From the IMG/VR virus record IMGVR_UViG_3300044675_006217: a DNA stretch of 59,594 nt; one strand, 5' to 3'. How positions within the stretch are numbered: position 1 is the stretch's first letter; the number at the start of each line of letters is the position of its first letter. The stretch is from an uncultured virus (IMG/VR IMGVR_UViG_3300044675_006217) (lineage: Duplodnaviria > Heunggongvirae > Uroviricota > Caudoviricetes). This document shows, in pieces, positions 4,062 to 52,380 of the stretch. Position numbers and translations under genes: made by a program. The notes under the pieces were generated by a model, which was given only the letters and a program-made list of their open reading frames with translations, was not told the origin of the DNA and made no database searches.

Positions 4062-4071
4062 AAAAAAATAT

Positions 4072-4422
4072 ATGGAAATTTTAGTATGGTTTATTTTAAG
4101 TTATGGATTAATGAACATTATGGTTTATGGGTCCATATTTCAGGGTTTAAGAAACTTTTTTAAAAATTGGGGTGAAAATAAATTCATGCCACTTCATTTT
4201 TTAGGTGAGTTTATTTCAGGGATATTATCCTGCCCGATGTGTTTTTCAACATGGGGAGGTTTTGTATTATCCTTGTTGATTTATTCACCAACAAATGATA
4301 TGTTTAATACACCGATTTGGGGTTCATGGTTCTTTGATGGTGTTTTGTCATCAGGAGCTGTTTGGGCAATCAATTCGGTAATTGAATGGTACGAACAAAA
4401 CAGACCAAGTAATAAATTTTAA
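4072..4422 (+). CDS. membrane protein, DUF1360-like
   Basis: Hydrophobic helices with an L-S-C-P-M-C-F-S-T-W motif. Confidence 0.6.
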   Translation: MEILVWFILSYGLMNIMVYGSIFQGLRNFFKNWGENKFMPLHFLGEFISGILSCPMCFSTWGGFVLSLLIYSPTNDMFNTPIWGSWFFDGVLSSGAVWAINSVIEWYEQNRPSNKF

Positions 4423-4433
4423 ATTAAATAAAA

Positions 4434-4721
4434 ATGGGTAAAGCGGCAAAAGCACATAGAGCAAAAGTTCAAAAGAGAAACAAAAAAGTTAAACAAGAAG
4501 AATATACTCTTAGAAAGAAATGGAATGAGGCGTTTCAAAAACAAATGGAAGAATTGAAAGAAAAGTTCGCACAAATGTCAGGAGACACCGAAAATATTGA
4601 AGATGTTGTTTCTGAAGGAACAGATAATGATACTACGGAAACACCCAATTATGACACAATATTAGAAGACGGAACAAAAGTGCAAATATCAGGTTTCCAC
4701 AACGTTGGTGAAAACGATTAA
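4434..4721 (+). CDS. hypothetical protein (basic N-terminus, acidic C-terminus)
   Basis: Operon-packed ORF. Confidence 0.6.
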   Translation: MGKAAKAHRAKVQKRNKKVKQEEYTLRKKWNEAFQKQMEELKEKFAQMSGDTENIEDVVSEGTDNDTTETPNYDTILEDGTKVQISGFHNVGEND

Positions 4722-9246: not shown

Positions 9247-9837
9247 ATGAGAAAGAAGAAAACAGAAATGAAATCACAAGACAAAAGATATATGCTTTTT
9301 ATTTTCGGTGATTTCACAGAAATGGAAAAGTTTATTGAGGACATTTCGTATCAGCTAATAACGGTGGTTTCTAGTGAATACCTAAAGTTTAATTATGGTG
9401 AGTTTGGTGTAGTTTTACACTTTAGAACCAAAGAACCTTTTATGGAACTAAAAGAATACGTTGATATGTGTTTGGACGGAGTAGTTGAGCAGTATTTTTT
9501 GATGGAGGCGACAGAAAACGTGGACATCAAAATGGAACGAAAATTGAAGAGAGATTTTTTAAATATAGATGGAGTAAAAAAAGAAACAAAAACAAAAGGA
9601 GTACATAAAGATGAATTATCAGAAGAAAAAAAGAAAAGAATGAACAATATAATGGAGTTCATATTTCCACTAACGGAAGACATGATTAAAAATCCATTTT
9701 TAAAAGAAGAAAAAAAAGAGAAACCGACTGTAGACCAAATTTTGGATAAGATTTCAGAAAAAGGTATAGAGTCATTAACAGAGGAAGAAAAACAAATATT
9801 AGACAATTATGGAAAGAGAGAAAACCGAGGAAATTAA
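9247..9837 (+). CDS. hypothetical protein with C-terminal DUF6576-like helical motif
   Basis: VDQILDKISEKGIESLTEEEKQILD. Confidence 0.65.
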   Translation: MRKKKTEMKSQDKRYMLFIFGDFTEMEKFIEDISYQLITVVSSEYLKFNYGEFGVVLHFRTKEPFMELKEYVDMCLDGVVEQYFLMEATENVDIKMERKLKRDFLNIDGVKKETKTKGVHKDELSEEKKKRMNNIMEFIFPLTEDMIKNPFLKEEKKEKPTVDQILDKISEKGIESLTEEEKQILDNYGKRENRGN

Positions 9838-10624
9838 ATCTTCAAACCCGATTAACCAAGACGAAATTCAACTTTATTTAAAAGACATTCGAAAGTTAAA
9901 AGTAATGACACCTGAAAGGGAAAAAATCCTTTCAAAAATGATTACAGATGAAAACTGTACTGAAAGAGAAAAAGAGTTAATCTATAAAGAACTTTTAGAG
10001 GGCAACTTACGTTTTGTTATTACCGTTGCAAAACAATATCAAAATCAAGGTATTGACCTATCAGACTTAATTGCTGAAGGAAATTATGGACTGTTAAAGG
10101 CCATTAAGAATTTTGATTGGACCAAGAACAACCGTTTTATTTCTTATGCTGTTTGGTGGATTAAACAATCAATCCTTCAATCACTAAATGATAATTCAAG
10201 AACAATCAGACTCCCGGTTAATGTTGTTCAAGATATGCAAAAAGAAAAAAAGGTTTTGGAAAAAACTAACGGGGAATTATCCGCAAAGTTTGCACAACTT
10301 CCAAAAATTGTTGATTTGGATATGCACATCAATGAAGACGGAGACACATTAATTGATGTAATAAAAAATGAAAATATCGTTTCACCTGATGAAATGTTTT
10401 CAACAAAGGACACTCTCAAACTTAAAATGATGGAAATTATGTCAGTATTGGATGAGCGTGAAAAAGTAATTATTGAGGATTACTACGGTATTACCGGCAC
10501 ACCTCGTACTTTGGAAGATATTGGTACAGATTTTGGTCTTACAAAAGAAAGAGTTCGTCAAATCAAAGAAAAGGCTCTTCGTAAACTACGAAACGAATGT
10601 TCAGATTTATTTGAATATTTATGA
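9809..10624 (+). CDS. RNA polymerase sigma70-family factor (RpoD/RpoS-like)
   Basis: YLKDI (region 1.2), NLRFVITVAKQY and DLIAEGNYGL (2.1/2.2), RFISYAVWWIKQSI, RTIRLP, TLEDIG..FGLTKERVRQI..KALRKLR (region 4). Confidence 0.95.
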   Translation: MEREKTEEIKSSNPINQDEIQLYLKDIRKLKVMTPEREKILSKMITDENCTEREKELIYKELLEGNLRFVITVAKQYQNQGIDLSDLIAEGNYGLLKAIKNFDWTKNNRFISYAVWWIKQSILQSLNDNSRTIRLPVNVVQDMQKEKKVLEKTNGELSAKFAQLPKIVDLDMHINEDGDTLIDVIKNENIVSPDEMFSTKDTLKLKMMEIMSVLDEREKVIIEDYYGITGTPRTLEDIGTDFGLTKERVRQIKEKALRKLRNECSDLFEYL

Positions 10625-22759: not shown

Positions 22760-23047
22760 ATGAATAATGTCGATATAGAAATTTACATGACAACCCTTGT
22801 CAAGTTTTTTACACAAAACCCTGACCAACTCAAGCTATTAATTGGTGACAATGACGGCTCAAAGTTTTATCAAAAAATTAGAGAAATTGCCGAAAAAAAC
22901 CAAAAAGAAGAAAAAGAAATAGCACCAACAAGAAATCAGATGATTCAGGTGATTTTAGAAATTCAAAATAAGGTTAAAAAAAACACCTTAAATAATGTGG
23001 TTTCCAATTTTATGGACCACCATATGGGAAAAATTTCATTGAATTAG
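22760..23047 (+). CDS. hypothetical protein
   Basis: ORF after TAAATTTG promoter element. Confidence 0.65.
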   Translation: MNNVDIEIYMTTLVKFFTQNPDQLKLLIGDNDGSKFYQKIREIAEKNQKEEKEIAPTRNQMIQVILEIQNKVKKNTLNNVVSNFMDHHMGKISLN

Positions 23048-38898: not shown

Positions 38899-38971
38899 GG
38901 TCCCATGATGTAATTGGATAACATATTTCTCTTCTAAAGAAATCTTTCAGGTTCGAACCCTGATGGGACTA
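38899..38971 (+). tRNA. tRNA-Arg(TCT)
   Basis: GGTCCCA/TGGGACT acceptor, TTTCT-cTTCTaa-AGAAA anticodon arm, GGTTCGAACC T arm. Confidence 0.88.
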
Positions 38972-39032
38972 CAAAAAAATAATAGGTATTGGTTCGTTTT
39001 TATTAAATTATAATATTTATAATAAAACAAAC

Positions 39033-39623
39033 ATGGGAATTGACAAAAAATATAAAAAAGAAGACCTTATAAGGTTAATTTTTACAGAAAATAAATCTTA
39101 CCGAGAAATTGGTAGAATTTATTCTGTTAGTGATACTTACATAAAAAAAATTGCCAATAAATTAGGGATTACTTTAACAAGGCGGAGAAAATTCCCTGAA
39201 GGTTACAAACCTCATAATTTTGGAAATTCAAAAAAACATACGTGTAAAAATTGTAATAAAGAATTTATACCATACACAAAAAAAAATTTATATTGTTCTA
39301 TGACATGTGATAATCAATATAAAGTACTTAAAAAGTATGAAGATTATATTGAGAATCAGGAAAAATATTGTTACGAAAGAGATATGAGATTTTTAAAAAA
39401 ACATATTTTAAACGAACAAAATAATTGTTGTAATATATGTGGGATAAAAAATATGTGGAACGAAAAAGAATTAATTTTTGTATTGGACCATATAGACGGA
39501 AATGCGTCAAATAATATGAGAAATAACTTAAGGTTGATTTGTCATAATTGTGACTCACAGTTGGACACATATAAGTCTAAAAATAAAAACTCAGCTAGAA
39601 AAAAAAGATATATTAAAAACTAA
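39033..39623 (+). CDS. HNH endonuclease
   Basis: CNIC, LDHIDG..SNN..NLRLIC.NCD; N-terminal HTH and Zn motifs. Confidence 0.9.
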   Translation: MGIDKKYKKEDLIRLIFTENKSYREIGRIYSVSDTYIKKIANKLGITLTRRRKFPEGYKPHNFGNSKKHTCKNCNKEFIPYTKKNLYCSMTCDNQYKVLKKYEDYIENQEKYCYERDMRFLKKHILNEQNNCCNICGIKNMWNEKELIFVLDHIDGNASNNMRNNLRLICHNCDSQLDTYKSKNKNSARKKRYIKN

Positions 39624-39634
39624 AAAAAATAATT

Positions 39635-39760
39635 ATGGAAGACATCTTTGAACAAGAACATTATGATTTTATTAACTCAGAAGATTATTTTCAATACATG
39701 AAAGAATTTTTTGAATATGAAGAAAAAGAAGCTTTATCTTCAGAATTAAATGAATTATAA
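39635..39760 (+). CDS. small acidic protein (41 aa)
   Basis: MEDIFEQEHYDFINSEDYFQYMKEFFEYEE... Confidence 0.5.
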   Translation: MEDIFEQEHYDFINSEDYFQYMKEFFEYEEKEALSSELNEL

Positions 39761-39785
39761 TTAAGGTAGGTTAATAGATGGTATA

Positions 39786-39855
39786 AGTCGTATAGCTCAG
39801 TTGGTAGAGCAATCCATTTATGGACGTGTCACAGGTTTGAATCCCGTTGCGACTT
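39786..39855 (+). pseudogene. tRNA-like element with 4-nt anticodon loop
   Basis: AGTCGTA/TGCGACT acceptor, canonical D arm, TCCA-ttta-TGGA arm, T-loop TTTGAAT. Confidence 0.65.
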
Positions 39856-39929
39856 ATCAAAATTAAAAAAGGTGTTGGAAACAACACCTTTTTTGTTTGT
39901 TGGCATATTTATATTTAAATAATAAAATT

Positions 39930-40610
39930 ATGAATAGAAGTTATAGTAAAATTAGACACATGCAACAATCAAACTTGATGTTGGAAAATAGAATAATGGA
40001 AGAAAAATCAAGACAATTTTTGATGGAAATCACCGATGACAATGGTCTACTTACCGCTTATCCTGATTTAAAAACAGTATTGGAACCAAAACTTAAAGCT
40101 GCCGATAAAACAGGAGAAACAAGTGTTGGTGTGTATGGTTCAAAGGCATATTTTAGAGCGGCAAAAGGTCAGACTAATTGGACTATATATGTCTATACTT
40201 TTGGACCAAGAACATATGGTAGACCCAAATATGCTAATCCGGCAACGGTTCTAACTTTAGATTTTCCTGATACTACAATGAATGAAGTTCCGTATTTCTT
40301 TTATGGTAGTCCTGACACAGGTAGCGGCTCAGCAGCCCAAAAATTTTATTTGTCGGGAAGTTTTGGTGACATAATAGCCAATAATGGTTCATTGAAATTA
40401 TCTACTAAACTCGAAGTAAAAACTGACGACGAAGTTGCTGCCGATATATCCAAACATTTTCCTGGTTTTGACGCCGCAAAGTTAGTTACAATTGCAAACA
40501 ATTTAAAATTAGGTTCCTACGCAAAAAATCTATCTAAAGAAACTAGAGCTAAATTAACAGGAGTCGCTAAAACGGTTTATGATACAATTGCAGGACCGGC
40601 TCAAAAATAA
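39930..40610 (+). CDS. cassette-array protein 1 (ends PAQK)
   Basis: Leader ...KSRQFLME; unique body. Confidence 0.75.
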   Translation: MNRSYSKIRHMQQSNLMLENRIMEEKSRQFLMEITDDNGLLTAYPDLKTVLEPKLKAADKTGETSVGVYGSKAYFRAAKGQTNWTIYVYTFGPRTYGRPKYANPATVLTLDFPDTTMNEVPYFFYGSPDTGSGSAAQKFYLSGSFGDIIANNGSLKLSTKLEVKTDDEVAADISKHFPGFDAAKLVTIANNLKLGSYAKNLSKETRAKLTGVAKTVYDTIAGPAQK

Positions 40611-40622
40611 AATAAAATAATT

Positions 40623-41066
40623 ATGAAACAATTTATTATATCAGAACAAGAAAAACAAAGAATTTTGGAAATGCACCAAAATGCCACGTCAAAACAATAT
40701 TTAAACGAAGACCTTTCTCAGGTTATTTTATTGTCTTTAACTTTACAATATAATTTAGCACCGGGAAATATTAAAAAATATTCCCCAACTGTTTTTTTTA
40801 GTGCTGATATTTCAACTCACAATATAAAAACAATTAGACAAATTTCTTTATTTAATCAGATTGAAGTGGGACCAAGTTATCAATCTTTAAAAGGTAATAT
40901 TATTAATGGTCAATTTTCCCTTACTCCCGAACAAATCAATATATTAAAACCAAAGATAAATAAAGGACCACAAGTTTTAGAAGGGAATATGGTTATCGCC
41001 GAACAAGGCACTCAATTTGGGGTCAAACCTACAATTATTGAAAAACAAATGCCAACTCAAAAATAA
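40623..41066 (+). CDS. cassette-array protein 2 (MKQFIISEQEK leader, PTQK)
   Basis: Shared leader and tail. Confidence 0.8.
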   Translation: MKQFIISEQEKQRILEMHQNATSKQYLNEDLSQVILLSLTLQYNLAPGNIKKYSPTVFFSADISTHNIKTIRQISLFNQIEVGPSYQSLKGNIINGQFSLTPEQINILKPKINKGPQVLEGNMVIAEQGTQFGVKPTIIEKQMPTQK

Positions 41067-41078
41067 AATAAAATAATT

Positions 41079-41618
41079 ATGAAACAATTTATTATATCAG
41101 AACAAGAAAAAAATAGAATTTTGGAAATGCACCAAAGTTCAACTTCAAGACAATATTTAATGGAACAATATGTAGCAACAAGTAAAAACAATTCAGTGAT
41201 TATTACTTTACCTTACAAAAAAATTAAAGACCAAAAAGGTAATATTGTAGAGGTTCCTGCTAAAGAAGCGTTTTTCAAGCCGGAATACGTCCCAACTTTT
41301 TTAGCTTTGGATGGTGACCCAGATTTAGCAAAAGAATTAAGTAAAAACCCAAATATGAAAACCTACACTCTAAATAGTATAGACCTTGGAGGTGGTGCTG
41401 GTGAAGGTACTATAACAACTTTTGGTCCTCAAAAATTTGTAAAAGGTGGTGATGGATATATTTACCTGTCCGGGAAAGCTTCAATGGGGGGTGTAACTAA
41501 AATAAACTTTGGAATCTTTCCATCTGGAAATGTAACTAAATTTTCAGATACAAATACCCCAAAAACGGGTGGAGTTACAATAAAAAAAGGAAAAGAATAC
41601 ATCCCAACTCAAAAATAA
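41079..41618 (+). CDS. cassette-array protein 3 (MKQFIISEQEK leader, PTQK)
   Basis: Shared leader and tail. Confidence 0.8.
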   Translation: MKQFIISEQEKNRILEMHQSSTSRQYLMEQYVATSKNNSVIITLPYKKIKDQKGNIVEVPAKEAFFKPEYVPTFLALDGDPDLAKELSKNPNMKTYTLNSIDLGGGAGEGTITTFGPQKFVKGGDGYIYLSGKASMGGVTKINFGIFPSGNVTKFSDTNTPKTGGVTIKKGKEYIPTQK

Positions 41619-41641
41619 TAAAATAAATAAAAAACAAAAAA

Positions 41642-42010
41642 ATGAAAAGAATTGTAAGATTAACTGAGTCAGATTTAGCTCGAATTGTAAGAAGGGTTAT
41701 TAATGAACAAGCACCAACATTACCAAAAGTTCCTAATTTAGAATTTCCGAATTATACATTTATATTTAGTTATGACGCCAGTGATGACAGTATTATTTGC
41801 CGAGGATATATAAAAAACCCACAAAGAGCATTGAAACAACTAGACAGTCCGGTTAATATGGGTAGTGATTATATTATGAAAAGTACTTTACGAGGTTGGG
41901 GAATGCAATCACAATTTGATGGAACAATTGGTCGTAAAATTAAAGAAACCTTGGACAATTTATTAATGCAAATTGTAGAGTACAAAAAAAAGAAACCCAC
42001 TCAAAAATAA
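41642..42010 (+). CDS. cassette-array protein 4 (MKRIVRLTESDL leader, PTQK)
   Basis: Shared leader and tail. Confidence 0.8.
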   Translation: MKRIVRLTESDLARIVRRVINEQAPTLPKVPNLEFPNYTFIFSYDASDDSIICRGYIKNPQRALKQLDSPVNMGSDYIMKSTLRGWGMQSQFDGTIGRKIKETLDNLLMQIVEYKKKKPTQK

Positions 42011-42022
42011 AATAAAATAATT

Positions 42023-42514
42023 ATGAAACAATTTATAATCTCAGAACAAGAAAAAAGTAGAATTTTGGAAATGCATCAAAGTGCAACTTCAAGACAATAT
42101 TTAATGGAAGCGGTTCAATCTGTAGTTTTAAGTTTAAATATTCCAACAATCAATGGTCAAATAGATAGAAATAAAAACATATCTTTTTCTATAGGTCCGC
42201 TTGGTAAAAACGCCGCAAATGAATATACAGGAATATTAAATAGTATGATTATCAATGGTGGATTTGCAAATAAATTAACAAATCAAAAATTAAATGGTGA
42301 GTATGTAAATGGAGAAATCATGTTAGGAAACGATGCCGATTTACTTATAAGTGCGATTAATAATGTGAAAAGTGATGATTTAATTGATACATCTATGTTT
42401 AATAGAAACTCCGCAAGTTTTGTAAGAAAAAAAGACCCGAACAATCCATCATCTGGGCCACAAACGGTTTTTATACAAAAAATTATTAAAAAATCGACAC
42501 CAACACAAAAATAA
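42023..42514 (+). CDS. cassette-array protein 5 (MKQFIISEQEK leader, PTQK)
   Basis: Shared leader and tail. Confidence 0.8.
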   Translation: MKQFIISEQEKSRILEMHQSATSRQYLMEAVQSVVLSLNIPTINGQIDRNKNISFSIGPLGKNAANEYTGILNSMIINGGFANKLTNQKLNGEYVNGEIMLGNDADLLISAINNVKSDDLIDTSMFNRNSASFVRKKDPNNPSSGPQTVFIQKIIKKSTPTQK

Positions 42515-42530
42515 TAAAAATAAAATAACT

Positions 42531-43013
42531 ATGAAAAAAATTATAAGACTAACCGAAAGAGACCTAACTCGTATTGTTAAAAGAGTTATCAATGAAAGAC
42601 AATATTTGATGGAAGAAGAAGTTGCAACAAACTATTTCAACACTATGAAAACTAAGTTTGATGGTCAAATGACAGCATATAAATTACCGACCATTACATT
42701 ACAACTAAATAACAATGGAACTATTTCGATTGTTAAAGATGGAAAAGCGGTATATACGTCAACAGTTTCACCAGATGTCCCAACTTTATTACAGGCCATA
42801 TCATATAATGAAACTGTAAAAGGGACCGATATCCCAACGGTAAAATTAAGTTCTTTATTATTACCAAATTTAGTAAATGGATATACCAACTATGTTAAAT
42901 CAACACCCGACGCTAAGTTAACACTAGGTCCGGTTACTGGAGCTTTACGAAGTGCTGTAACGGAAGTTGTTAACACATATTTTAAAAATAAACAACCAGC
43001 ACAACCTAAATAA
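42531..43013 (+). CDS. cassette-array protein 6 (MKKIIRLTERDL...RQYLME hybrid leader, PAQPK)
   Basis: Shared leader and tail. Confidence 0.8.
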   Translation: MKKIIRLTERDLTRIVKRVINERQYLMEEEVATNYFNTMKTKFDGQMTAYKLPTITLQLNNNGTISIVKDGKAVYTSTVSPDVPTLLQAISYNETVKGTDIPTVKLSSLLLPNLVNGYTNYVKSTPDAKLTLGPVTGALRSAVTEVVNTYFKNKQPAQPK

Positions 43014-43019
43014 AAAATT

Positions 43020-43050
43020 AAAAACCCCACCTGAAAAGATGGGGTTTTTT
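43020..43050. terminator. bidirectional terminator
   Basis: AAAACCCCA/TGGGGTTTT between convergent genes. Confidence 0.8.
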
Positions 43051-43051
43051 A

Positions 43052-43468
43052 TTAAGAGGCTTTTTCAAAACGACACTTTGAAATTTTCTTTACGGTTGTC
43101 ATGTAATCGGTAAACCAATACCACATCACAGATTCATCTTTTGTGTTCACCAACAAACCATAATCAAAACCATCTTCAAGAATACTAACTTTTAAAACAT
43201 CATCACCAAAATCTTCGTATTCAATTGGAAGAACACTTTTTTCTACATCATTAACAAAATATGTAGAAGTTTTTTCATCCAAATCTAACACGTAACGTGT
43301 ATATGTGGAATCAACGTCATAACTATAATCAGGACTTGAATAAACAGAATCCAAAGTTGTTTTTCTTTCGCAAACCATTTCTTGTCTTTCAAAAACATGA
43401 ATTATAATTTTTTGAGAAAAACTCAAAGTGGACAATAAAAGACCGAATGTTAAAAATAGTGTTTTCAT
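43052..43468 (-). CDS. secreted hypothetical protein
   Basis: Bacteroidota-type signal peptide ending SFS-Q. Confidence 0.7.
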   Translation of the reverse strand: MKTLFLTFGLLLSTLSFSQKIIIHVFERQEMVCERKTTLDSVYSSPDYSYDVDSTYTRYVLDLDEKTSTYFVNDVEKSVLPIEYEDFGDDVLKVSILEDGFDYGLLVNTKDESVMWYWFTDYMTTVKKISKCRFEKAS

Positions 43469-43597
43469 GAGGTTTATTTTTTTAAATGATTATTTCTACA
43501 AATATACACATAAAAATTAAACCAAAAAAACTTTATTAGTTTTTTTTATTCAACTCTATATTTATATATTAAATAATAAAAACAAAACACAAAGATT

Positions 43598-44443
43598 ATG
43601 AAGTTTTTAATTTCAGAAGAAGAAAAAAGTAGAATACTTAATATGCATAAAAATGCTATTAAAAGACAGTATTTAAAGGAACAAGAACCTACTGTGGCGG
43701 GTAATATATATAATGCAGGTCGGTCAGACAGTTTAGTTGAACAAGGAATGTATTATATAGGATTTTCAGTGGGAGGTGATAAAAACCAATATTATTACCA
43801 ATGTATTTGGGACCCTAATTCGTTTTATGATGTAACAACAAACAAAGGAACCTCGCAAGAACCTGGGGCGATTTTCGGTTCTGGTGGTAAAGTAATTAAA
43901 AATCCTGAAGCAACATTAGGTTTAACCGGTAATTGGAAAGAACAATTAAAAAATGGATGTGCAACGTCATATAGTCAATTACAAAAATTCAGAGATACTC
44001 ATTGTCCTAACCAAAAAGATAAAGTGTGGAAAAGTCCTGAACATTATAAACAACAATGCGAGGGTTGGAATATAAGTAAACAAAATGATGCAAAGCAAGC
44101 TGCTGCGGCGGAGGCTGAAGCTGCGACAGCGGCGTCTCAAAAAGCTGCGACAGATGCGGAAATACAAAAAAGGGCGGAGTTAAATGCTCAAGACTCTGCA
44201 AATGCACAAAATTTTAAAACAACAATGGCTGACTATAGAGCAAAGTTAGATAAGTTTGAAAGTATGACACAAGAAGAATTAGAAGCACTAATTAACGAAA
44301 TAAATGCATATTGGAAAAAAAATTCTTGGACTAGTAGTGATGAAGACGAAAAGACATATATAAGGGTGTTCCCGAAATTCAACAACGAATTTAAATATAA
44401 ATTCCCAGAACTTAAAGTATTATTAACAACAAAAACTTATTAA
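43598..44443 (+). CDS. hypothetical protein with MKFLISEEEKSRILNMH leader
   Basis: Same leader family as the cassette array; Ala-rich linker. Confidence 0.75.
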   Translation: MKFLISEEEKSRILNMHKNAIKRQYLKEQEPTVAGNIYNAGRSDSLVEQGMYYIGFSVGGDKNQYYYQCIWDPNSFYDVTTNKGTSQEPGAIFGSGGKVIKNPEATLGLTGNWKEQLKNGCATSYSQLQKFRDTHCPNQKDKVWKSPEHYKQQCEGWNISKQNDAKQAAAAEAEAATAASQKAATDAEIQKRAELNAQDSANAQNFKTTMADYRAKLDKFESMTQEELEALINEINAYWKKNSWTSSDEDEKTYIRVFPKFNNEFKYKFPELKVLLTTKTY

Positions 44444-44489
44444 AAACAAAATTAATCTAAAAAAAACCCACCCCATAAAGGTGGGTTTT

Positions 44490-45002
44490 TTATTTATATA
44501 CCGTTAAAACACAATAAAAAATCTGACCATTATCATAAGTAACCCCATCTATAATAATCTTATCTGAAGTTTTACTACCAACACAAAATCCGTTGTATTT
44601 TGGGTTTAACATCAACGCATTATGTTTAGGAGAATTTTTCCATAACTCTAACACTTCATTCGCTCTTTCTTCATCCGTCTTCAAATCTCTAAAACTACAA
44701 AGGTTTTCCCCAATATATGTGTAGTTGTACCCATACAAATATGTTATTCTATCTATGAATGTTTCAAATGTTGTTGGAAAAGAAGATACAATTCTTTGAG
44801 AATGGTCCATAGGTAATGTAGATGTCTCAATCATATAGTTTAACATTTGGTCGTTGGCCAATTTGGCTTTAGATTCATATACTAATTCAGGAATACCATT
44901 TTGTTTTCGATATAAATTAATTTTTTTAATAATAAGTTCATTTACCTTTTGACCAAAAGAAAACGAGAATATAAATAAGAATGTTATTAAAAGTATCTTC
45001 AT
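44490..45002 (-). CDS. secreted CAP/SCP-domain protein
   Basis: Signal peptide; INLYR..NG.PEL, GENL, WKNSPKHNALML. Confidence 0.8.
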   Translation of the reverse strand: MKILLITFLFIFSFSFGQKVNELIIKKINLYRKQNGIPELVYESKAKLANDQMLNYMIETSTLPMDHSQRIVSSFPTTFETFIDRITYLYGYNYTYIGENLCSFRDLKTDEERANEVLELWKNSPKHNALMLNPKYNGFCVGSKTSDKIIIDGVTYDNGQIFYCVLTVYK

Positions 45003-45098
45003 GTTGATTGTATTATTTCTACAAATATACACATAAAAATTAAACCAAAAAATTTTATCATATTTTTTTGATTTAAATATTTTTCGTATATTTGTATT

Positions 45099-45596
45099 AT
45101 GAAAAACAAACTACCATACGAAGCCACATCAAAAGCAATCCAAGGTTATTCAGAATCAGTGATTGCAAAATCAGAAAATAATGACTGTGTTGTTAGAGCA
45201 TTTGCATCGGCATTTGACATTCCATATGACAAAGCACATAAGTATGTTGCAGAACAATTTGGTAGAAAACCAAAAAAAGGGACTTATGGGACTGTAAGTA
45301 AACTTGTAAGAATGGCTGACAATAGAACGACTGTAAACTACAAAAAAGTTTATCCTGTTGGGGTTAGAAAAAGTTCCACATTGATTAATTCTTTGTCTTA
45401 TAATGTTACAATCAAAGGAGAAACCAAATTAAGACAAATGACCGTTGGGACTTTCATCAAACAAAACCCAAAAGGAACATTCTTTGTTTTAGTTAGACAA
45501 CACGCATTTACAATCAAAGATGGTGTTGTTATTGGAAACTTTGAGGATTCGGTTAAAACAAAAAAAATTATGAGGTGTGCTTTCGAGATTAAATAA
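45099..45596 (+). CDS. hypothetical phage protein (NDCVVRA motif)
   Basis: NDCVVRA...H....DG motif; early-type promoter at 45087. Confidence 0.7.
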   Translation: MKNKLPYEATSKAIQGYSESVIAKSENNDCVVRAFASAFDIPYDKAHKYVAEQFGRKPKKGTYGTVSKLVRMADNRTTVNYKKVYPVGVRKSSTLINSLSYNVTIKGETKLRQMTVGTFIKQNPKGTFFVLVRQHAFTIKDGVVIGNFEDSVKTKKIMRCAFEIK

Positions 45597-45636
45597 TTTT
45601 TTCAACTAATGATATATTTATAATAAAAATATTATT

Positions 45637-45954
45637 ATGAGAAATAGATTAACTGAAAGAGATTTATCACGTATTGTTAGACGTGTAATCAAAGAAGACA
45701 AAAACGATAGAAGAGAAATCAATAGCATTCTTGATGATATATTCGCAACTTTTGAATTTTCTGAAAAAGGAAATGACGAAATGATTACATTAGCTAAGTT
45801 TATTGTTGAAAAACCAAATGAAGTTGCAAGTTCAATTATGGCAAGACTTAAAAAAGGTTATGGTGCACACGATGAAGATGACACTTTTGGAACTTATACA
45901 TCAAAAAGAGATGAATTAAGAGACTTAGAAAGTAGATTAGGTTCAAGAATGTAA
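45637..45954 (+). CDS. hypothetical protein (RLTERDLSRIVRRVIKE leader)
   Basis: Leader family; TATTTATA at 45615. Confidence 0.7.
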   Translation: MRNRLTERDLSRIVRRVIKEDKNDRREINSILDDIFATFEFSEKGNDEMITLAKFIVEKPNEVASSIMARLKKGYGAHDEDDTFGTYTSKRDELRDLESRLGSRM

Positions 45955-46032
45955 TATTACAATCTAAAATATTTTAGAAACCCATCTTCAAAAAAAGGTG
46001 GGTTTTTTATTTTAAAAAAAGTTTAAAAAAGA

Positions 46033-46136
46033 TTTGGTAAATCAAAATAAACTACATATATTTGTATAACAAACAACGGGGGTGAGAAAATGTGATGGTG
46101 GTCTCACCCCCACAACAATAGAAAAAAGTTCTTTGA
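46033..46136 (+). promoter_or_regulatory. tRNA-operon promoter, hairpin and boxA-like leader
   Basis: TTTG (46033), N20, TATATTTG (46057); GGGGGTGAGA/TCTCACCCCC hairpin; GTTCTTTGA at 46128. Confidence 0.65.
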
Positions 46137-46243
46137 TTTAAGATATTGTGATTGTAAGAAAAGGGAAACTCGTAAAGTGCATTAACCTGTTGATACAAGA
46201 TGGTGAAACGAGAGTGTGTATCAACTACTAATTACAAATAATT

Positions 46244-46318
46244 GGTGTGGTAGCTCAGTAGGTAGAGCAAAGAGCCCGAAAACTCTTGTGCCGATGGTTC
46301 GATTCCATTCCCATACCA
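46244..46318 (+). tRNA. atypical tRNA-Phe(GAA)-like gene with 8-nt anticodon loop
   Basis: GGTGTGG/CCATACC acceptor; AAGAG-cccgaaaa-CTCTT; extra nucleotide in the T/acceptor junction. Confidence 0.55.
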
Positions 46319-46462
46319 CAAAAGAATTTACAACGGACAAGGCTTAGGCAAGTGAGTTGAAAATGAGTAGTAGGAGATTTAATCGTTTAGACTACAGAAA
46401 GTTTGATACAATAGATTGGTGGGATGCGAGTGGTTGACCAAAATTCTTTTAAATACAAACAT

Positions 46463-46536
46463 AGTTAATTAGCTCAGTTGGTTAGAGCGATTCCCTGATA
46501 CGGAATAGGTCATTGGTTCGAGTCCAGTATTAACTA
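46463..46536 (+). tRNA. tRNA-Ile(GAT)
   Basis: Full cloverleaf; ATTCC-ctGATac-GGAAT. Confidence 0.9.
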
Positions 46537-46612
46537 CAACTAAGGAAGCAATACGAGAGTCCTGAATTGTACACAAAATATCCGTATTGACATCTCGGAA
46601 AGACGAGGACAT

Positions 46613-46679
46613 AGTCAGGTGGCGTTATTGGAGTACGCATCGTAAATGAAGATTGCAGGTTCGAATCCTGTCCTGACTA
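46613..46679 (+). ncRNA. tRNA-like element with truncated anticodon arm
   Basis: AGTCAGG/CCTGACT acceptor; GCGT/ACGC D stem; CAGGTTCGAATCCTG T arm; no 7-nt anticodon loop. Confidence 0.6.
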
Positions 46680-46751
46680 CAAAGGGGTAGAATATGAAAA
46701 AGGGCTTTTCCTGAAAGACGGCTAGCTAAGCCCGCGTCTACCCTCATTTAC

Positions 46752-46823
46752 GGCCCATTCGTCTAAAAGTAAGGACAGTTGGTTTTCATCCAACAAATCT
46801 CGGAGCGTTACCGGGATGGGCTA
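46752..46823 (+). tRNA. tRNA-Glu(TTC) with non-canonical T-loop
   Basis: GGCCCAT/ATGGGCT; GTTGG-ttTTCat-CCAAC; T-loop AGCGTTA. Confidence 0.8.
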
Positions 46824-46874
46824 CAAACCTAATCCTTTGTGATAGGCTTTTATCCACTAAGAGATAAATTAAAT

Positions 46875-46993
46875 AGTCAGGTGGCGGAATTGGTTAGACG
46901 CTGCTGTGGGGCGACACCACTGTATAAAAATAGCATAAGCTCCTATGATGAAGTACAAATCATAGGGTACAGGTTCAAATCCTGTCCTGACTA
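46875..46993 (+). ncRNA. tRNA-like element with expanded anticodon domain and long variable arm
   Basis: Same acceptor and T arm as 46613; Leu-like D arm; TGCTGT/ATAGCA and CCTATGAT/ATCATAGG helices. Confidence 0.6.
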
Positions 46994-47010
46994 CAAAAAA
47001 ATTAAAAGTT

Positions 47011-47280
47011 ATGAAAAAATTTGAAGATTTAGAATTTGATAAATTGTCTGATGAACCATATATGTCAGGTGTTCGTTCTCGAATGATGTTTGAAAACGGA
47101 TTTGGAGTTAGTGTTGTGTCTCACACATATTCATATGGTGGAAAAGATGGTTTGTTCGAAATTGCAGTTTTAGACAAAGAAGGTAATCTAACATATGAAA
47201 CTTCTGTTACAAGTGATGTGATTGGTTATTTAAATCCTGAAGAAGTTACAGAAGTTATGGAACAAGTCCAAAAGTTGTAA
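47011..47280 (+). CDS. hypothetical phage protein (FENGFGVSVV..SYGG..GLFEIAVL)
   Basis: Recognisable small phage-protein motif. Confidence 0.75.
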   Translation: MKKFEDLEFDKLSDEPYMSGVRSRMMFENGFGVSVVSHTYSYGGKDGLFEIAVLDKEGNLTYETSVTSDVIGYLNPEEVTEVMEQVQKL

Positions 47281-47285
47281 AAACA

Positions 47286-47357
47286 GGTCCATTGGTGTAG
47301 TGGCTAACATTCATCCCTGTCACGGATGAGCCGCGAGTTCGATTCTCGCATGGACCG
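47286..47357 (+). tRNA. tRNA-Asp(GTC)
   Basis: GGTCCAT/ATGGACC; CATCC-ctGTCac-GGATG; G discriminator. Confidence 0.9.
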
Positions 47358-47374
47358 CAAAAAAATTATTATAT

Positions 47375-47554
47375 ATGAAAAAATATCTTTTTACCTTTTT
47401 GGGTCTTTTTATGACCATCATTGGTGTTGTGTGTACTTATTTATTTTTTAAAAATGAATTTTCTTGGATGACCATAATTTATTGTTTGGGTTCAGTTATT
47501 TTATTGGGTCCCGCAACTGAAAAATGGACACAGTTTTTCAAAAACCTATTATAA
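47375..47554 (+). CDS. small 2-TM protein (59 aa)
   Basis: MKKYLFTFLGLFMTIIGVVCTYLFF... Confidence 0.55.
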   Translation: MKKYLFTFLGLFMTIIGVVCTYLFFKNEFSWMTIIYCLGSVILLGPATEKWTQFFKNLL

Positions 47555-47561
47555 TTATTTT

Positions 47562-47638
47562 GGTCTTATAGCTCAGCAGGTTAGAGCAACGGTCTCATAA
47601 ACCGTAGGTCTCTGGTTCGAACCCAGGTGGGACCACCA
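47562..47638 (+). tRNA. tRNA-CAT (elongator Met or Ile2)
   Basis: Full cloverleaf; ACGGT-ctCATaa-ACCGT; encoded CCA. Confidence 0.9.
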
Positions 47639-50292: not shown

Positions 50293-50874
50293 ATGAAAAC
50301 ATATGAACAATTACCAATACCAAAAGATTCTGATTGGGATAGAAATACTTTATTAAGTAAATTACATTGGAGAATAAGATATTTTTTTACCGGTGTGAAA
50401 AACATTTTTAAATGGATGCCAACTATCTACCACGATAGAGATTGGGACGGCGACTTCATTTTAAAAATATTACAAAAGAAAATAGAGTTTCAAAGAAAAG
50501 AACTTGTAAGTGCTAATAGACATATGAATATCGATAGAGATAATAGAGATATGACTTTGGCTCTTAACTTACTTGAAAGAGTTAGAGAAGAACATTATCA
50601 ATTAGAATGTATGGATTACTGGAACGATGATATAAGTTTTGAGGATGTCCCAAATAAACCTGATTCAAAATCTATTGAAATTAAAACAACTGATGAAAGA
50701 TTTGACAATTATCTAAATAAATATCCTTCTTCAGTTCGCGTGGTTATTAAAAAACACGGAGTTATTGAAGATAAAAAAACTTTATGTTTAGAAGTATCTT
50801 ACTATAATCATAATAAAGCAAATAAACTTCTTTTCCGAATTTTAGAGGAAAGATTACCCTATTGGTGGGATTAA
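50293..50874 (+). CDS. hypothetical phage protein
   Basis: W.P.I..DRDWD motif and C-terminal WWD. Confidence 0.7.
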   Translation: MKTYEQLPIPKDSDWDRNTLLSKLHWRIRYFFTGVKNIFKWMPTIYHDRDWDGDFILKILQKKIEFQRKELVSANRHMNIDRDNRDMTLALNLLERVREEHYQLECMDYWNDDISFEDVPNKPDSKSIEIKTTDERFDNYLNKYPSSVRVVIKKHGVIEDKKTLCLEVSYYNHNKANKLLFRILEERLPYWWD

Positions 50875-50885
50875 AAAAAAAGTAT

Positions 50886-51065
50886 ATGGAAGACAAAAGA
50901 ATTTTACATGGACAGTTGATGTCTGAACACAGACGACTAACTAACGAAATTGCCGACATAAGAGCGGATGGTTTTGAACTAAACGAGGAACAAAAAAGAA
51001 CAATACAAGAATTGGAGTTCAAGTTAAAAAAAATTGCTGAAAAATTATATACCTTATATCAATAA
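50886..51065 (+). CDS. small coiled-coil protein
   Basis: ATG start inferred. Confidence 0.55.
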   Translation: MEDKRILHGQLMSEHRRLTNEIADIRADGFELNEEQKRTIQELEFKLKKIAEKLYTLYQ

Positions 51066-51074
51066 ATTAAAACC

Positions 51075-52085
51075 GTGAAAAATCCATCAGGAAAAAAATT
51101 AGAGAAACTTGTTTTTGGAATGTTTGACCAAATGATTGAAGGTGCAGACAAGTATGTTACAGAACAAGGTTCAACTTGGTTGATATTCACCAAAGAAAAA
51201 AAATGGGTGGTTGAATTTACAAACGATAAAACCTTATGGTTCAACTATAACCTATTTAAAAGTGAGTTGGAACTAATCGGTAAGGATTGCACTGAAGAAA
51301 GAGATTTTATTAAGAACTGGTTTGAATCAAGATTTTTGGGTATTAAACCTGTTGAAGACACCATCCAAAATGGGGTGAAGGACACCCAATGTGATGAACG
51401 CAGCTACCCAAAATGGGTTGAAGACACCATTCAAAATGGGGTAAGACACACCGGCTGTTCCAAAGTCAATCATTCAACGACCGTTGAAGACACCATTCAA
51501 AATGGTGTAAGACACACCGATTATTTCAATTATTCTAGTGACTTGGTTATTGAAGACACCATTCAAAATGGGGTGAAAGAAACAACACCTAGTGGTTATT
51601 TGGGTTCAATAGAGATGAAAGGTAAAATAGTTCATCAAATTGAATCTCCAAAACAAAATAATGAGGTTGAAGACGCTATTCAAAATGGGGTTAAGGACAC
51701 CCACTTCAATTTCCAGAGTGGTTTGATACAAGTTGAAGATGTCATTCAAAATGGGGTAAGACACACCAACCTTTCGGTAAAGGTGAAAGCGAACCAGGTT
51801 GAAGACACCATTCAAAATGGGGTAAGACAAACCAGTAAAAGACTTCAAAAACCGTTTCGGTCAATTAAAGATGCCATTCAAAATGGGGTAAAAGAGACCC
51901 GTTTTCAAAAGAGTAGTAATCTTTACCGTATTGAAGATACTAGAACACTATGGGGAAAAAGTGGTGACGAAGGAGTCGTTGAATACATCATTCAAGAGGG
52001 GGTTAAAGATATTATTGAAGACTCTTATCCACATAAACATAGAGTTGAAGGTGTAATTAAAAATACAGTTAAAGATGGGATTTGA
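51075..52085 (+). CDS. repeat protein: ~90-aa N-terminal domain plus (VEDTIQNGVRHT + 10 variable aa)n
   Basis: The ORF reads through the entire repeat-spacer array. Confidence 0.75.
   Translation: MKNPSGKKLEKLVFGMFDQMIEGADKYVTEQGSTWLIFTKEKKWVVEFTNDKTLWFNYNLFKSELELIGKDCTEERDFIKNWFESRFLGIKPVEDTIQNGVKDTQCDERSYPKWVEDTIQNGVRHTGCSKVNHSTTVEDTIQNGVRHTDYFNYSSDLVIEDTIQNGVKETTPSGYLGSIEMKGKIVHQIESPKQNNEVEDAIQNGVKDTHFNFQSGLIQVEDVIQNGVRHTNLSVKVKANQVEDTIQNGVRQTSKRLQKPFRSIKDAIQNGVKETRFQKSSNLYRIEDTRTLWGKSGDEGVVEYIIQEGVKDIIEDSYPHKHRVEGVIKNTVKDGI
51351..52079. repeat. CRISPR-like array, 36-nt repeats with unique 30-nt spacers, in frame within a CDS
   Basis: Consensus GTTGAAGACACCATTCAAAATGGGGTAAGACACACC at 51351, 51417, 51483, 51549, 51666, 51732, 51798 and 51864; degenerate copies at 51930, 51978 and 52044. 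Confidence 0.9.
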
Positions 52086-52380
52086 TAAAAAAATATTAGA
52101 GCTAAGTAGAACAATTTACCAAACATCTATCATGTGTCATAACGCTAAAGGTAACCCAACTAAGCAGATTGACAAGATAAGAGGGATGATTCGTGAGTTC
52201 ATCAGAACAGAAGTTGTTCCTTATGAGTTGACAAATTCAGAAAAATTAACTTTTATTTTAAAAAACGAATTAATAATCACAGAGGCTGTTGGTAAAGGTC
52301 ATAAAGCAAGTGACGGAGATGAATTTCAAAAGACAAGAGAAAAAATAAAAAAATATAGAAAAGAATTAAACATATTATGA
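52075..52380 (+). CDS. hypothetical protein
   Basis: Operon-packed ORF. Confidence 0.65.
   Translation: MGFDKKILELSRTIYQTSIMCHNAKGNPTKQIDKIRGMIREFIRTEVVPYELTNSEKLTFILKNELIITEAVGKGHKASDGDEFQKTREKIKKYRKELNIL

Follow-up and report, generated by a model that had tools for sequence, protein, structure and literature searches.

The open reading frame at 51075..52085 of the window, by which we mean the whole 59,594-nucleotide stretch of viral DNA that was analysed, has the layout of a CRISPR array and probably encodes a cassette-mosaic protein that is translated, rather than a guide-RNA array. The DNA resembles such an array because a repeat of 36 nt and an insert of 30 nt add up to 66 nt, or 22 codons, and because selection holds the array open and in frame. 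Judged by its sequence, the gene is a member of a large family of lake jumbo-phage proteins, an abundant and fast-rearranging family of large lake phages that has so far gone without a name. CRISPR finders flag the locus and the protein is annotated as hypothetical or as 'dodecin'; on our reading, the CRISPR call and the dodecin label are both wrong.

The repeat array lies within an intact gene

An earlier note on this DNA had described an intact, in-frame gene with eight good 36-nt repeats, three decayed copies at the 3' end and intervals of 30 nt (eight), 81 nt (one) and 12 nt (one). All of these numbers were reproduced. The well-kept copies start at 51351, 51417, 51483, 51549, 51666, 51732, 51798 and 51864 and differ by 0-7 mismatches from GTTGAAGACACCATTCAAAATGGGGTAAGACACACC, whereas the decayed copies at 51930, 51978 and 52044 have 19, 10 and 16 mismatches, respectively. 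The intervals are, in order, 30, 30, 30, 81, 30, 30, 30, 30, 12 and 30 nt, and every copy is in frame 0 of the ORF 51075..52085. The G+C count given for the seven 30-mers that follow good repeats (82 of 210) and the synonymous variants ATC/ATT, GGG/GGT and GTG/GTA/GTT were likewise found. The parts of the gene and its immediate neighbour are as follows.

51075..52085, + strand: intact gene from the ORF list, GTG start, 336 aa, with an N-terminal domain, a repeat/cassette region and a conserved C-terminal tail
51075..51341, + strand: N-terminal domain, aa 1-89, conserved; predicted helix, four strands and two helices
51351..51899, + strand: eight well-kept 36-nt repeats, each coding for [V/I][E/K]D[T/A/V]IQNGV[K/R]xT, with 30-nt inserts and one of 81 nt between them
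51387..51416, + strand: 30-nt insert QCDERSYPKW, its cluster in 14 of 120 homologs
51453..51482, + strand: 30-nt insert GCSKVNHSTT, in 4 of 120 homologs; within IMG/VR, an exact DNA match is found on no contig but the window's own
51519..51548, + strand: 30-nt insert DYFNYSSDLV, in 6 of 120 homologs
51585..51665, + strand: 81-nt long cassette TPSGYLGSIEMKGKIVHQIESPKQNNE, shared more widely than any other cassette of the family, in 62 of 120 homologs
51702..51731, + strand: 30-nt insert HFNFQSGLIQ, in 17 of 120 homologs
51768..51797, + strand: 30-nt insert NLSVKVKANQ, in 15 of 120 homologs
51834..51863, + strand: 30-nt insert SKRLQKPFRS, in 32 of 120 homologs
51900..52082, + strand: C-terminal region with the three decayed repeat copies, the conserved segments RFQKSSNLYR... 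and IEDSYPHKHR and the tail VKDGI
52075..52380, + strand: 101-aa ORF, conserved immediate downstream neighbour, overlapping the last 11 nt of the gene

Elsewhere on the + strand of the window a single repeat match with 14 mismatches was seen, nothing comparable to the array copies, and the reverse strand had no match at 12 mismatches or fewer. The G+C content is 36.5% in the ORF and 30.1% in the window. A copy of the gene that is 100% identical is carried by an IMG/VR contig (L001), and the phage was seen in 19 runs of a lake series that covers 2016-2024. Against 50,697 phage records, blastn with the gene returned nothing at 1e-5 and just chance pieces of 20-40 nt at E<=10. In 12 of 20 non-redundant loci the downstream 101-aa ORF lies at this place and overlaps the gene in this way; it did not match Pfam or PHROG. 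The gene is surrounded by replication and nucleotide-metabolism genes and by early genes. Given this genomic setting, a role of the protein in conflict between phage and host or between phages is probable.

Repeats and inserts are under coding constraint

The array was then followed through 29 related loci. These contain 220 repeat-like 26-mers, 218 of which are in frame inside stop-free family ORFs; the remaining two are one solitary copy between tandem paralogs, found in two duplicate loci. The stops or frameshifts in homologous arrays that, according to the earlier note, would refute a coding function were not observed in the family ORFs. All 195 inserts from 25 distinct genes have a length divisible by 3 and no in-frame stop, and 144 of them are exactly 30 nt long. 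The entropy of the 220 repeat copies is 0.68, 0.38 and 1.02 bits at the three codon positions, which is variation of the coding type. The pN/pS ratio was 0.41 for the 30-nt inserts (8 related pairs), 0.21 for the 81-nt cassette (36 pairs of 9 distinct DNAs) and 0.26 for the N-terminal domain (66 pairs), and the insert peptides are kept among orthologs, including deep ones. We conclude from these results that repeats and inserts are under coding constraint, with purifying selection on the peptides. The last of three readings proposed in the earlier note, a translated protein repeat with the geometry of an array, is supported, since the ORF is intact in all relatives, the insert peptides are conserved and pN/pS is below 1.

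A large family with a constant domain and variable units

Homologous proteins numbered 2254 at E<=0.01. Across the family, 4-19 or more units of 22 residues come after an N-terminal domain of about 89 aa, and the gene in the window is built in this way. Each unit has 12 constant residues (VEDTIQNGV[K/R]xT, 36 nt) and, in most cases, 10 variable residues (30 nt). The family also has a small number of longer cassettes that are conserved, as is the tail. The N-terminal domain was found in 267 cluster representatives at E<=1e-3; it is always N-terminal and, fragments apart, has the repeats behind it. The units of divergent members have a period of 22 aa in 474 cases, 23 in 89, 24 in 39 and 21 in 26. 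Insert lengths are 7-56 aa.

The N-terminal domain was modelled with AF2 and reached a pLDDT of 86.8 in the best model and about 50 in the other four. A fold search with this model gave nothing convincing (best Foldseek E 0.33, best VIA Z 4.3), and the ESM Atlas gave no usable match to the domain. The constant 12-mers may form a scaffold on which the 10-mers would be exposed as variable segments. Since the full-length AF2 model is unreliable (pLDDT 44) and was excluded from the fold search, this scaffold and loop architecture is one that we infer.

Alleles are collinear mosaics

When 120 proteins of the family were broken down into 235 cassette clusters, the order of the cassettes was concordant in 7352 of 7482 cassette pairs. 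The same cassette DNA stood beside differing neighbours in all six IMG/VR matches, and contigs from lake metagenomes show alternative inserts attached to identical repeats. Sharing of cassettes is greatest at the C-terminal end, with a mean frequency of 25 compared to 13 at the N-terminal end. The alleles are collinear mosaics that differ in the units present. Whole units are probably gained, lost and exchanged by homologous recombination within the nearly identical 36-nt repeats. Read in this ordinary way, the gene would be a clear case in nature of a protein that evolves as a mosaic of cassettes by means of short DNA repeats, and the locus a useful negative control for surveys of viral CRISPR arrays.

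Inserts and repeats have features that are unusual for protein evolution

Several features of the inserts and repeats are not accounted for by point mutation and recombination alone. As the earlier note had stated for the spacers, the inserts are mutually unrelated: their pairwise Hamming distances centre at 22-23 of 30, and a distance of 6 or less was seen in just 8 of the 4950 pairs. Their composition is nearer to that of translated random DNA (total variation distance 0.108) than to that of the phage proteome (0.149). They have a G+C content of 40.6%, compared to 30.9% in native 30-nt windows, and reach 50% or more in 22% of cases against 2.45% of the native windows. The G+C content over the codon positions is flat in the inserts, at.44/.41/.37, as against.40/.30/.23. 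The possibility that inserts arose from one another through frameshift or inversion was considered and rejected; at 24 bits or more, 55 in-frame pairs, 2 shifted pairs and 1 reverse pair were found, and shuffled queries gave 6.

The repeats retain codons that are rare in the genome, namely ACC in 130 of 152 cases (13% genome use), GGG in 141 of 216 (12%) and GTG in 108 of 205 (11%). Between genes whose N-terminal domains are 54% identical, the repeat DNA is 88% identical. In one relative, L023, all eight repeat copies are identical around seven unique 30-mers, which average 48% G+C between flanks of 27-38%. One of these seven inserts matches the antisense strand of an ERF-family recombinase gene at 27 of 30 positions, 24 of them contiguous, and the similarity ends at the insert boundaries. 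The matched gene (PF04404, 64.6 bits) is on a high-GC metagenome contig and has no flanking repeats. Chance matches of 24 nt in the collection searched, whose size in bases is not given, were estimated at fewer than 0.01. No ERF gene was found in the 190-kb L023 record, and a search of four partial records of related phages gave none. By this match, the L023 insert looks copied from a gene of another mobile element.

Possible involvement of CRISPR adaptation machinery

The features just described bear on a second reading, also proposed in the earlier note, in which CRISPR adaptation machinery makes the repeat region, or made it in the past, and the protein is diversified by spacer acquisition. 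We regard this as a live alternative, though a less likely one than the cassette mosaic. A host Cas1-Cas2 acting in trans would take the 36-nt repeat as a CRISPR repeat or integration site, and the repeat would be duplicated together with the addition of about 30 nt of captured foreign DNA (66 nt, 22 codons). Since translation of the gene has to be preserved, survival would be limited to insertions of exactly 30 nt that have no in-frame stop.

The geometry is identical to that of type VI-B arrays of Flavobacterium, which have a 36-nt repeat and spacers of 29-31 nt (23 of 32 exactly 30 nt) and which, as described in PMC8092290, are filled in trans by a II-C adaptation module. Integration by Cas1-Cas2 at off-target sites outside arrays is on record (PMC7054753, citing Nivala 2018). 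The random-like, GC-rich inserts, the uniform L023 repeats around unique inserts, the ERF match that stops at the insert edges and the lack of an ERF gene in the L023 record point in the same direction, as do the decayed repeats at the 3' end. The share of singletons among the inserts is 2.4 times higher at the 5' end, falling from 0.19 there to 0.08 at the 3' end. As regards the polarity in relatives that the earlier note had asked about, inserts that close relatives do not share are mostly internal, with 3323 at the 5' end, 4875 internally and 1254 at the 3' end, and novelty is not limited to one end.

Against this reading stands, first, that the foreign match is a single one. Matches outside the family were found in IMG/VR for none of five L023 inserts, for neither the one window insert nor the one common cassette searched, and the inserts of the window had no protospacer in 50,697 phage records, in 401 Flavobacteriaceae genomes or, for one insert, in IMG/VR. 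The best match of the window array in the 401 genomes had 47 bits, and the top four places were unrelated genes or frames. Second, no array of the phage-type repeat was found among 185,579 species representatives of cellular organisms; the sole arrays matched there were three Flavobacterium VI-B arrays at 24/36 identity. Third, in the orientation in which the two repeats resemble each other the polarity is opposite, and the leader of the host array falls on the side of the gene's decayed 3' end. Finally, the periods of 21, 23 and 24 aa and the long conserved cassettes are unlike CRISPR.

If this reading were true, an immune-memory mechanism would have been exploited or exapted for protein diversification, and the array would preserve, in translated form, DNA that the phage lineage has encountered. 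Spacer integration would then be seen for the first time as a source of diversity in a protein, and the origins of CRISPR arrays as well as other abilities of Cas1-Cas2 would become directly testable in an environmental phage-host system.

Cas genes and the Cas13b repeat fold were not found

The phage array was compared with the VI-B arrays of F. columnare ATCC 23463 (L040), Flavobacterium sp. J27 (L045) and F. covae (L052). In common are a 36-nt repeat that starts with GTTG, spacers of about 30 nt, a period of 66 nt, mutually unrelated inserts and a decayed terminal repeat. The Flavobacterium arrays adjoin cas13b (845 bits), whereas the phage array has no cas gene. Their spacing varies from 65 to 67 nt and they are not open frames, whereas a single ORF runs through the phage array, whose insert lengths are all divisible by 3. 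The Flavobacterium repeat folds into a closed hairpin of -10.9 kcal/mol, compared to a minimum free energy of -5.6/-5.1 kcal/mol for the phage repeat, which ends GTTG...CACC and lacks the terminal GTTG/CAAC stem of the Cas13b repeat. Selection for an RNA hairpin in the phage repeat was not supported by a comparison with synonymous recodings, of which a fraction of 0.24 (sense) and 0.07 (antisense) was at least as stable.

The earlier note had pointed to a likeness of the repeat to the reverse complement of Cas13b repeats. The orientation was right and the two repeats agree in register at 24/36 positions, but the likeness is confined to the first 21 nt (18/21), and the last 15 nt agree at 6/15, which is the chance level. 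Searched with a profile of 95 phage repeats, the Flavobacterium repeat reached 12.8 bits (E 0.47 per genome) over positions 1-21 only, and this is below random places in the genome of that repeat. By this search, the 24/36 identity is at background level. In 151 Flavobacteriaceae genomes the profile found no arrays, with single matches of 18-26 bits in 29 of the genomes, and in 151 Bacteroidota genomes it found nothing at E<=0.001.

In agreement with the earlier note, there was no cas gene among the 75 ORFs of the window in a PADLOC scan, whose sole cas-related match was a 19-bit Csm2-like one on a 95-aa ORF. Cas1 and Cas13b were found in none of four related phage records, which are 28-63% complete, and the Cas13b search was also silent in the control genomes. 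Rfam at E<=10 returned four chance matches to snoRNA and sRNA families and no CRISPR family in the region 50800-52300. The 32 spacers of the three Flavobacterium arrays had no credible target in the window and 29 phage loci, the best matches being 19/19 (1 mismatch) and 25 nt (3 mismatches). Of the features of a CRISPR array, the locus has the repeat and spacer geometry and lacks the sequence and fold of a Cas13b repeat and spacers free of a reading frame; cas genes were not found in the window ORFs or, for Cas1 and Cas13b, in the four partial records.

These results bear on a third reading, in which the locus functions through its RNA, as a decoy or a CRISPR array without cas genes, and the ORF is secondary. 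Cas13b or another Cas protein of the host would bind or process the transcript, so that guides chosen by the phage are loaded against rival elements or the effector is soaked up. The in-register identity to the VI-B repeat at equal length speaks for it, with a naive binomial P of 3e-7 that becomes 0.011 after multiplication by 17,823 known repeats (count from PMC10651486) and two strands. In one single case, that of the L023 insert, the sequence is antisense to the coding strand of ERF; transcribed in the sense direction, it would form the complement of the ERF mRNA, as is required of an RNA-targeting guide. Viral mini-arrays without cas genes are described in PMC7099407. PMC10651486 reports solitary repeat units (RNA anti-CRISPRs) for all CRISPR types except VI and defines them as non-coding, at least 90% identical to the host CRISPR repeat and behind a promoter.

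The phage gene shares with these elements, as they are described in the two papers, that CRISPR-type repeats are borne by a phage without cas genes. According to the same sources, however, the mini-arrays and RNA anti-CRISPRs are non-coding, carry a lone repeat or 1-2 spacers, and match a host repeat exactly or at 90% identity or more, whereas the phage gene has eight or more units inside a conserved ORF and its nearest known repeat is 67% identical. Moreover, the sense strand is the complement of the crRNA-sense repeat, and identity to the crRNA-sense strand is 16/36. Together with the mismatched last 15 nt, the missing stem, the low profile score, the lack of array-like matches in the two sets of 151 genomes and the strong coding constraint, this makes a function as guide or decoy very improbable. 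The first reading of the earlier note, a working or decoy cas-less array, is not supported: no cas genes were found, the repeat lacks the Cas13b repeat structure, the profile score is just 12.8 bits, and the searches for protospacers of the window inserts gave none.

Likeness to other repeat proteins

The protein has an N-terminal 'leader' domain and, behind it, hypervariable 10-mers with constant flanks, and in this it resembles multi-core RiPP precursors. A precursor in which the 12-mers are recognition sequences and the 10-mers are released as peptides would fit this architecture, the one point in its favour, and is hardly credible, as none of the neighbours could be recognised as an enzyme of processing or modification, the conserved neighbour is the 101-aa protein without a family match, and inserts of 7-56 aa and long conserved cassettes fit poorly.

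The preferred reading, a translated cassette-mosaic protein, has a partial parallel in PARCEL elements. These are described as variable-number in-frame tandem repeats with constant and hypervariable residues, DNA dyad symmetry and horizontal spread, also in a jumbo phage (PMC2996958; PMC7765460). The tandem in-frame repeats of variable number, the two kinds of residue, the dyad symmetry and the horizontal spread are points of likeness. In PARCEL, as described there, the variation is within the repeat unit, whereas here unrelated 30-nt blocks stand between near-identical 36-nt blocks. There is no sequence relationship, since DUF285/PF03382, the 25-residue PARCEL motif, had no match in a Pfam scan at E<=1.

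Dodecin (PF07311) shares the short helix-like motif EDAIQNxV, and some homologs are annotated as 'dodecin'. A dodecin domain was rejected, since the match had 22.1 bits against a Pfam gathering cut-off of 22.5 and covered 13 residues at profile positions 14-26 of 64, a motif echo only. The repeats of Bacillus siphophage tape measure proteins (Ray17, PBC1) share the motif [ST]I[WQ]NG[IV]K and a period of 11/22 residues; the match had a tblastn E of 8e-5 with 23% identity over about 200 aa, and the motif IxNG[VI]K recurs in it. The tape measure repeats are contiguous 11-mers without unrelated inserts in tail modules, whereas the phage gene has its own N-terminal domain and replication and nucleotide-metabolism neighbours.

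The sigma-factor gene gave no clue to the host, as the 120 matches listed were all 82-92% identical and came from metagenomes (contigs up to 299 kb). The assembled contigs of the RNA run X20, which bear on neither expression nor processing, contained only repeat pieces of 31-34 nt with unlike flanks, which belong to other family members, and one 227-nt piece from downstream of the gene.

The repeats lie within one gene

Features of the gene
51075..52085, + strand: repeat-bearing ORF with a GTG start, 336 aa (ORF list)
51351, 51417, 51483, 51549, 51666, 51732, 51798 and 51864 (starts), + strand: eight 36-nt repeats with 0-7 mismatches to GTTGAAGACACCATTCAAAATGGGGTAAGACACACC
51930, 51978 and 52044 (starts), + strand: three decayed repeats (sequence comparison)

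Successive copies were separated by 30, 30, 30, 81, 30, 30, 30, 30, 12 and 30 nt, all were held in frame 0 of the ORF, and the seven 30-mers behind good repeats contained 82 G+C in 210 nt. The earlier note's account of the repeats, intervals, G+C and frame was exact on recomputation. No comparable copies were found in the rest of the window. In runs X1, X2 and X4, the contig depth summed over the repeats (window 51316-51594) exceeded the flank depth 3-10 times, and contigs broke off in this stretch. Single lake samples contain many coexisting family members or alleles.

The gene belongs to a translated protein family

Homologous proteins numbered 2254 at E<=0.01. When the 89-aa N-terminal part alone was searched against 1.84 billion proteins, 267 cluster representatives were obtained, with the match N-terminal in every case and repeats behind it except in fragments. 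Family members carry 4-19 units. Exactly 10 aa were found in 644 of 999 inserts (120 proteins), and in divergent members the period was 22 aa in 474 cases, 23 in 89, 24 in 39 and 21 in 26.

The earlier note had named stops or frameshifts in homologous arrays as evidence against a coding function. Instead, 218 of the 220 repeat-like 26-mers in 29 related viral loci were in frame within stop-free family ORFs, the other two being one solitary copy between tandem paralogs, and all 195 insert lengths from 25 distinct genes were divisible by 3 nt. The entropy at codon positions 1, 2 and 3 of the 220 repeat copies was coding-like (0.68, 0.38 and 1.02 bits). The pN/pS ratio was 0.41 over 8 pairs of related 30-nt inserts, 0.21 over 36 pairs of the 81-nt cassette and 0.26 over 66 pairs of N-domains. 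Several inserts were still recognisable as peptides where the N-domains share only 37-47% identity; to this extent the peptide conservation that had been listed among the signs against a CRISPR origin was found. Two tandem paralogs occurred in 4 of the 29 loci, duplicates counted.

Tandem paralog pairs, each with its own N-domain (strand not stated)
L004 2731-4787
L005 (= L013, identical) 2689-4570; a solitary degenerate repeat copy lies between the paralogs at position 3340
L018
L020

As the whole story, we consider it somewhat better than an even bet that the gene is a translated cassette-mosaic repeat protein and not a guide array.

Alleles are mosaics of cassettes

In the 120 proteins, the inserts formed 235 clusters including 137 singletons (Chao1 about 660), and the cluster order was concordant in 7352 of 7482 cluster pairs, taken from 1059 protein pairs with at least 3 common clusters. 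Identical insert DNA was seen next to different neighbours, and in lake contigs the window's repeats were joined to other inserts. Whole units would be gained, lost and exchanged via recombination in the repeats. Along the gene, the singleton share showed only a drop from 0.19 (5' end) to 0.08 (3' end). Inserts that close relatives did not share were mostly internal (4875, compared with 3323 5'-terminal and 1254 3'-terminal ones).

The inserts resemble random DNA

The 100 distinct 30-nt inserts were mutually unrelated, with Hamming distances centred on 22-23 and 8 pairs at <=6. In an insert-versus-insert comparison they were not frame-shifted versions of one another. At the peptide level there was a small excess of 4-6 identities in 10 (93 versus 50, 22 versus 3.3 and 8 versus 0.2). 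The amino-acid composition of the inserts was nearer to translated random DNA (0.108) than to the phage proteome (0.149), and their codon-position GC was flat. Their GC content was 40.6%, compared with 30.9% for native 30-nt windows, and at least 50% GC was reached by 22% of the inserts versus 2.45% of these windows. Genome-rare codons were kept in the repeat (ACC 130/152, GGG 141/216, GTG 108/205). Between the window and L023, a 190-kb relative, the repeat DNA was 88% identical, the N-domains only 54% (DNA) and 26% (protein). Repeat identity was alike within genes (0.878) and between genes (0.862). The unrelated, random-like, GC-rich inserts, the rare-codon repeats and the conservation of the repeat at the DNA level are not accounted for by ordinary protein evolution.

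Divergent family member
L023 3226-3785 (190.5-kb IMG/VR contig), strand not stated: gene truncated by the end of the contig

In L023, the 8 repeat copies that are visible are 100% identical to one another in DNA and surround 7 unique 30-mers averaging 48% GC. When the metagenome collection was scanned with the central 24 nt of one insert, exactly one match was obtained, on a high-GC 3.3-kb contig without flanking repeats; chance matches for the 24-mer were estimated at <0.01, the collection size in bases not being given. Insert and contig were identical at 27 of 30 positions, and the similarity stopped at the insert edges. The match was on the antisense strand of an ORF placed by Pfam in the ERF recombinase superfamily (64.6 bits, E 1.3e-17). 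Over the match the ORF encodes AITYGRRYAL; the insert, when reverse-complemented, encodes AITYGRRYAM in frame. The 190-kb record of L023 itself yielded no ERF gene. The inserts might be made by CRISPR adaptation machinery that works on the repeats of the gene, a reading that we take seriously but hold to be rather unlikely. However, 5 other L023 inserts, 1 window insert and 1 common insert had no non-family match in IMG/VR, and for the window array neither the phage collection nor 401 Flavobacteriaceae genomes gave one. Within the L023 insert YSDVIYHVSY there is a perfect palindrome of 18 nt.

The likeness to type VI-B arrays is one of geometry

A pattern built from the window repeat was used to scan 185,579 species genomes and matched 34 places, 31 of them single and 3 in arrays (F. 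columnare, F. covae and Flavobacterium sp. J27). In J27 the array lies next to a Cas13b gene (845 bits). The Flavobacterium repeat GTTGTAGATACCCTTCAAAATAAGGGCTTTCCCAAC was identical to the window repeat at 24 of 36 positions, with 18/21 in the first 21 nt, which is forced by the search pattern, and 6/15 in the rest. The naive binomial probability is 3e-7, or ~0.01 when corrected for the 17,823 known CRISPR repeats given in excerpts of PMC10651486. Against a profile of 95 phage repeats, the Flavobacterium repeat reached no more than 12.8 bits (E 0.47 per genome, over positions 1-21), and random places in the same genomes reached up to 17.1 bits. No array-like matches to the phage repeat were found in 151 Flavobacteriaceae or in 151 Bacteroidota genomes. 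The likeness to Cas13b repeats put forward in the earlier note was borne out in orientation, at 24/36, and was limited to the first 21 nt.

The closing GTTG/CAAC stem of the VI-B repeat is missing from the phage repeat, which folds at -5.6/-5.1 kcal/mol, whereas the Flavobacterium repeat folds at -10.9 kcal/mol; the phage fold had no extra stability over synonymous recodings. In excerpts of PMC8092290, the VI-B leader lies on the side of base 36 when the repeat is written GTTGT..., and the array is transcribed from the leader inwards. On this basis the sense strand of the gene matches the complement of the crRNA, and the host leader side corresponds to the decayed, conserved 3' end of the gene. 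Membership in the VI-B arrays was rejected; these arrays are closest in form to the gene and have geometry alone in common with it. Next closest are viral mini-arrays and RNA anti-CRISPRs, which, in the excerpted text of PMC7099407 and PMC10651486, are non-coding and need near-identity to the host repeat. That the region acts as an RNA-level array or decoy we consider very unlikely.

Predicted structure and function

The full-length model was unreliable (pLDDT 44). For the N-domain, the best of five models reached pLDDT 86.8, the other four being near 50, and predicts a helix, four strands and two helices; this model had no fold match in the PDB. The constant motif resembles [ST]I[WQ]NG[IV]K, which recurs in the tape measure proteins of Bacillus phages, and, below threshold only, dodecin. 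Function is therefore inferred solely from the architecture and the rapid turnover. The constant 12-mers of the repeat protein would be a scaffold displaying the variable 10-mers, probably with a role in phage-host or phage-phage conflict; that the protein is a multi-core peptide precursor has hardly any credence with us. PARCEL repeat proteins are a conceptual parallel, described in PMC2996958 and PMC7765460 as variable-number, horizontally moving intragenic repeats, but are unrelated in sequence. A full-text literature search on the motif wording found no published account of the motif.

Genomic setting

The window corresponds to the part of a large phage genome that serves replication, nucleotide metabolism and early functions, and it encodes a primase, an exonuclease, an SbcCD-like nuclease, a sigma factor, three DNA methyltransferases, homing endonucleases, thymidylate synthase, an endolysin and six tRNAs. 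Relatives of the gene are borne on viral contigs of up to 283 kb; since, in addition, the 190-kb relative is rated 63% complete, the phages of this group are jumbo phages. Near-identical DNA was detected in 19 DNA runs of lake or freshwater origin, with dates from 2016 to 2024. The sigma-factor gene (9809-10621) has thousands of metagenome relatives, 82-92% identical among the matches listed, on contigs of up to 299 kb, which suggests a very abundant lake jumbo-phage clade to which the phage collection offers no cultured relative.

As the earlier note had stated for the window, no recognisable cas gene was found among its 75 ORFs. The sole cas-related signal, a weak Csm2-like PADLOC match (19 bits, E 3e-4) of a 95-aa ORF at 22760-23044, is probably due to chance. 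The SbcC-like ORF had its best match in a Microcystis phage (25% identity). A tRNA with a four-base anticodon (cgaa) was called by ARAGORN at 46244-46319 with no identity assigned, within a cluster of five others (Arg, Ile, Glu, Asp, Met; 38899-47638).

A 101-aa ORF without a known family (52075-52380) overlaps the last 11 nt of the gene. Since this position is kept in 12 of 20 non-redundant related loci, it may encode a partner of the repeat protein. In 6 loci, the ORF that directly precedes the family gene (L004 2412-2729) has a 32-bit match to Janus/Ocnus (PF05005), a phosphohistidine-phosphatase-like family.
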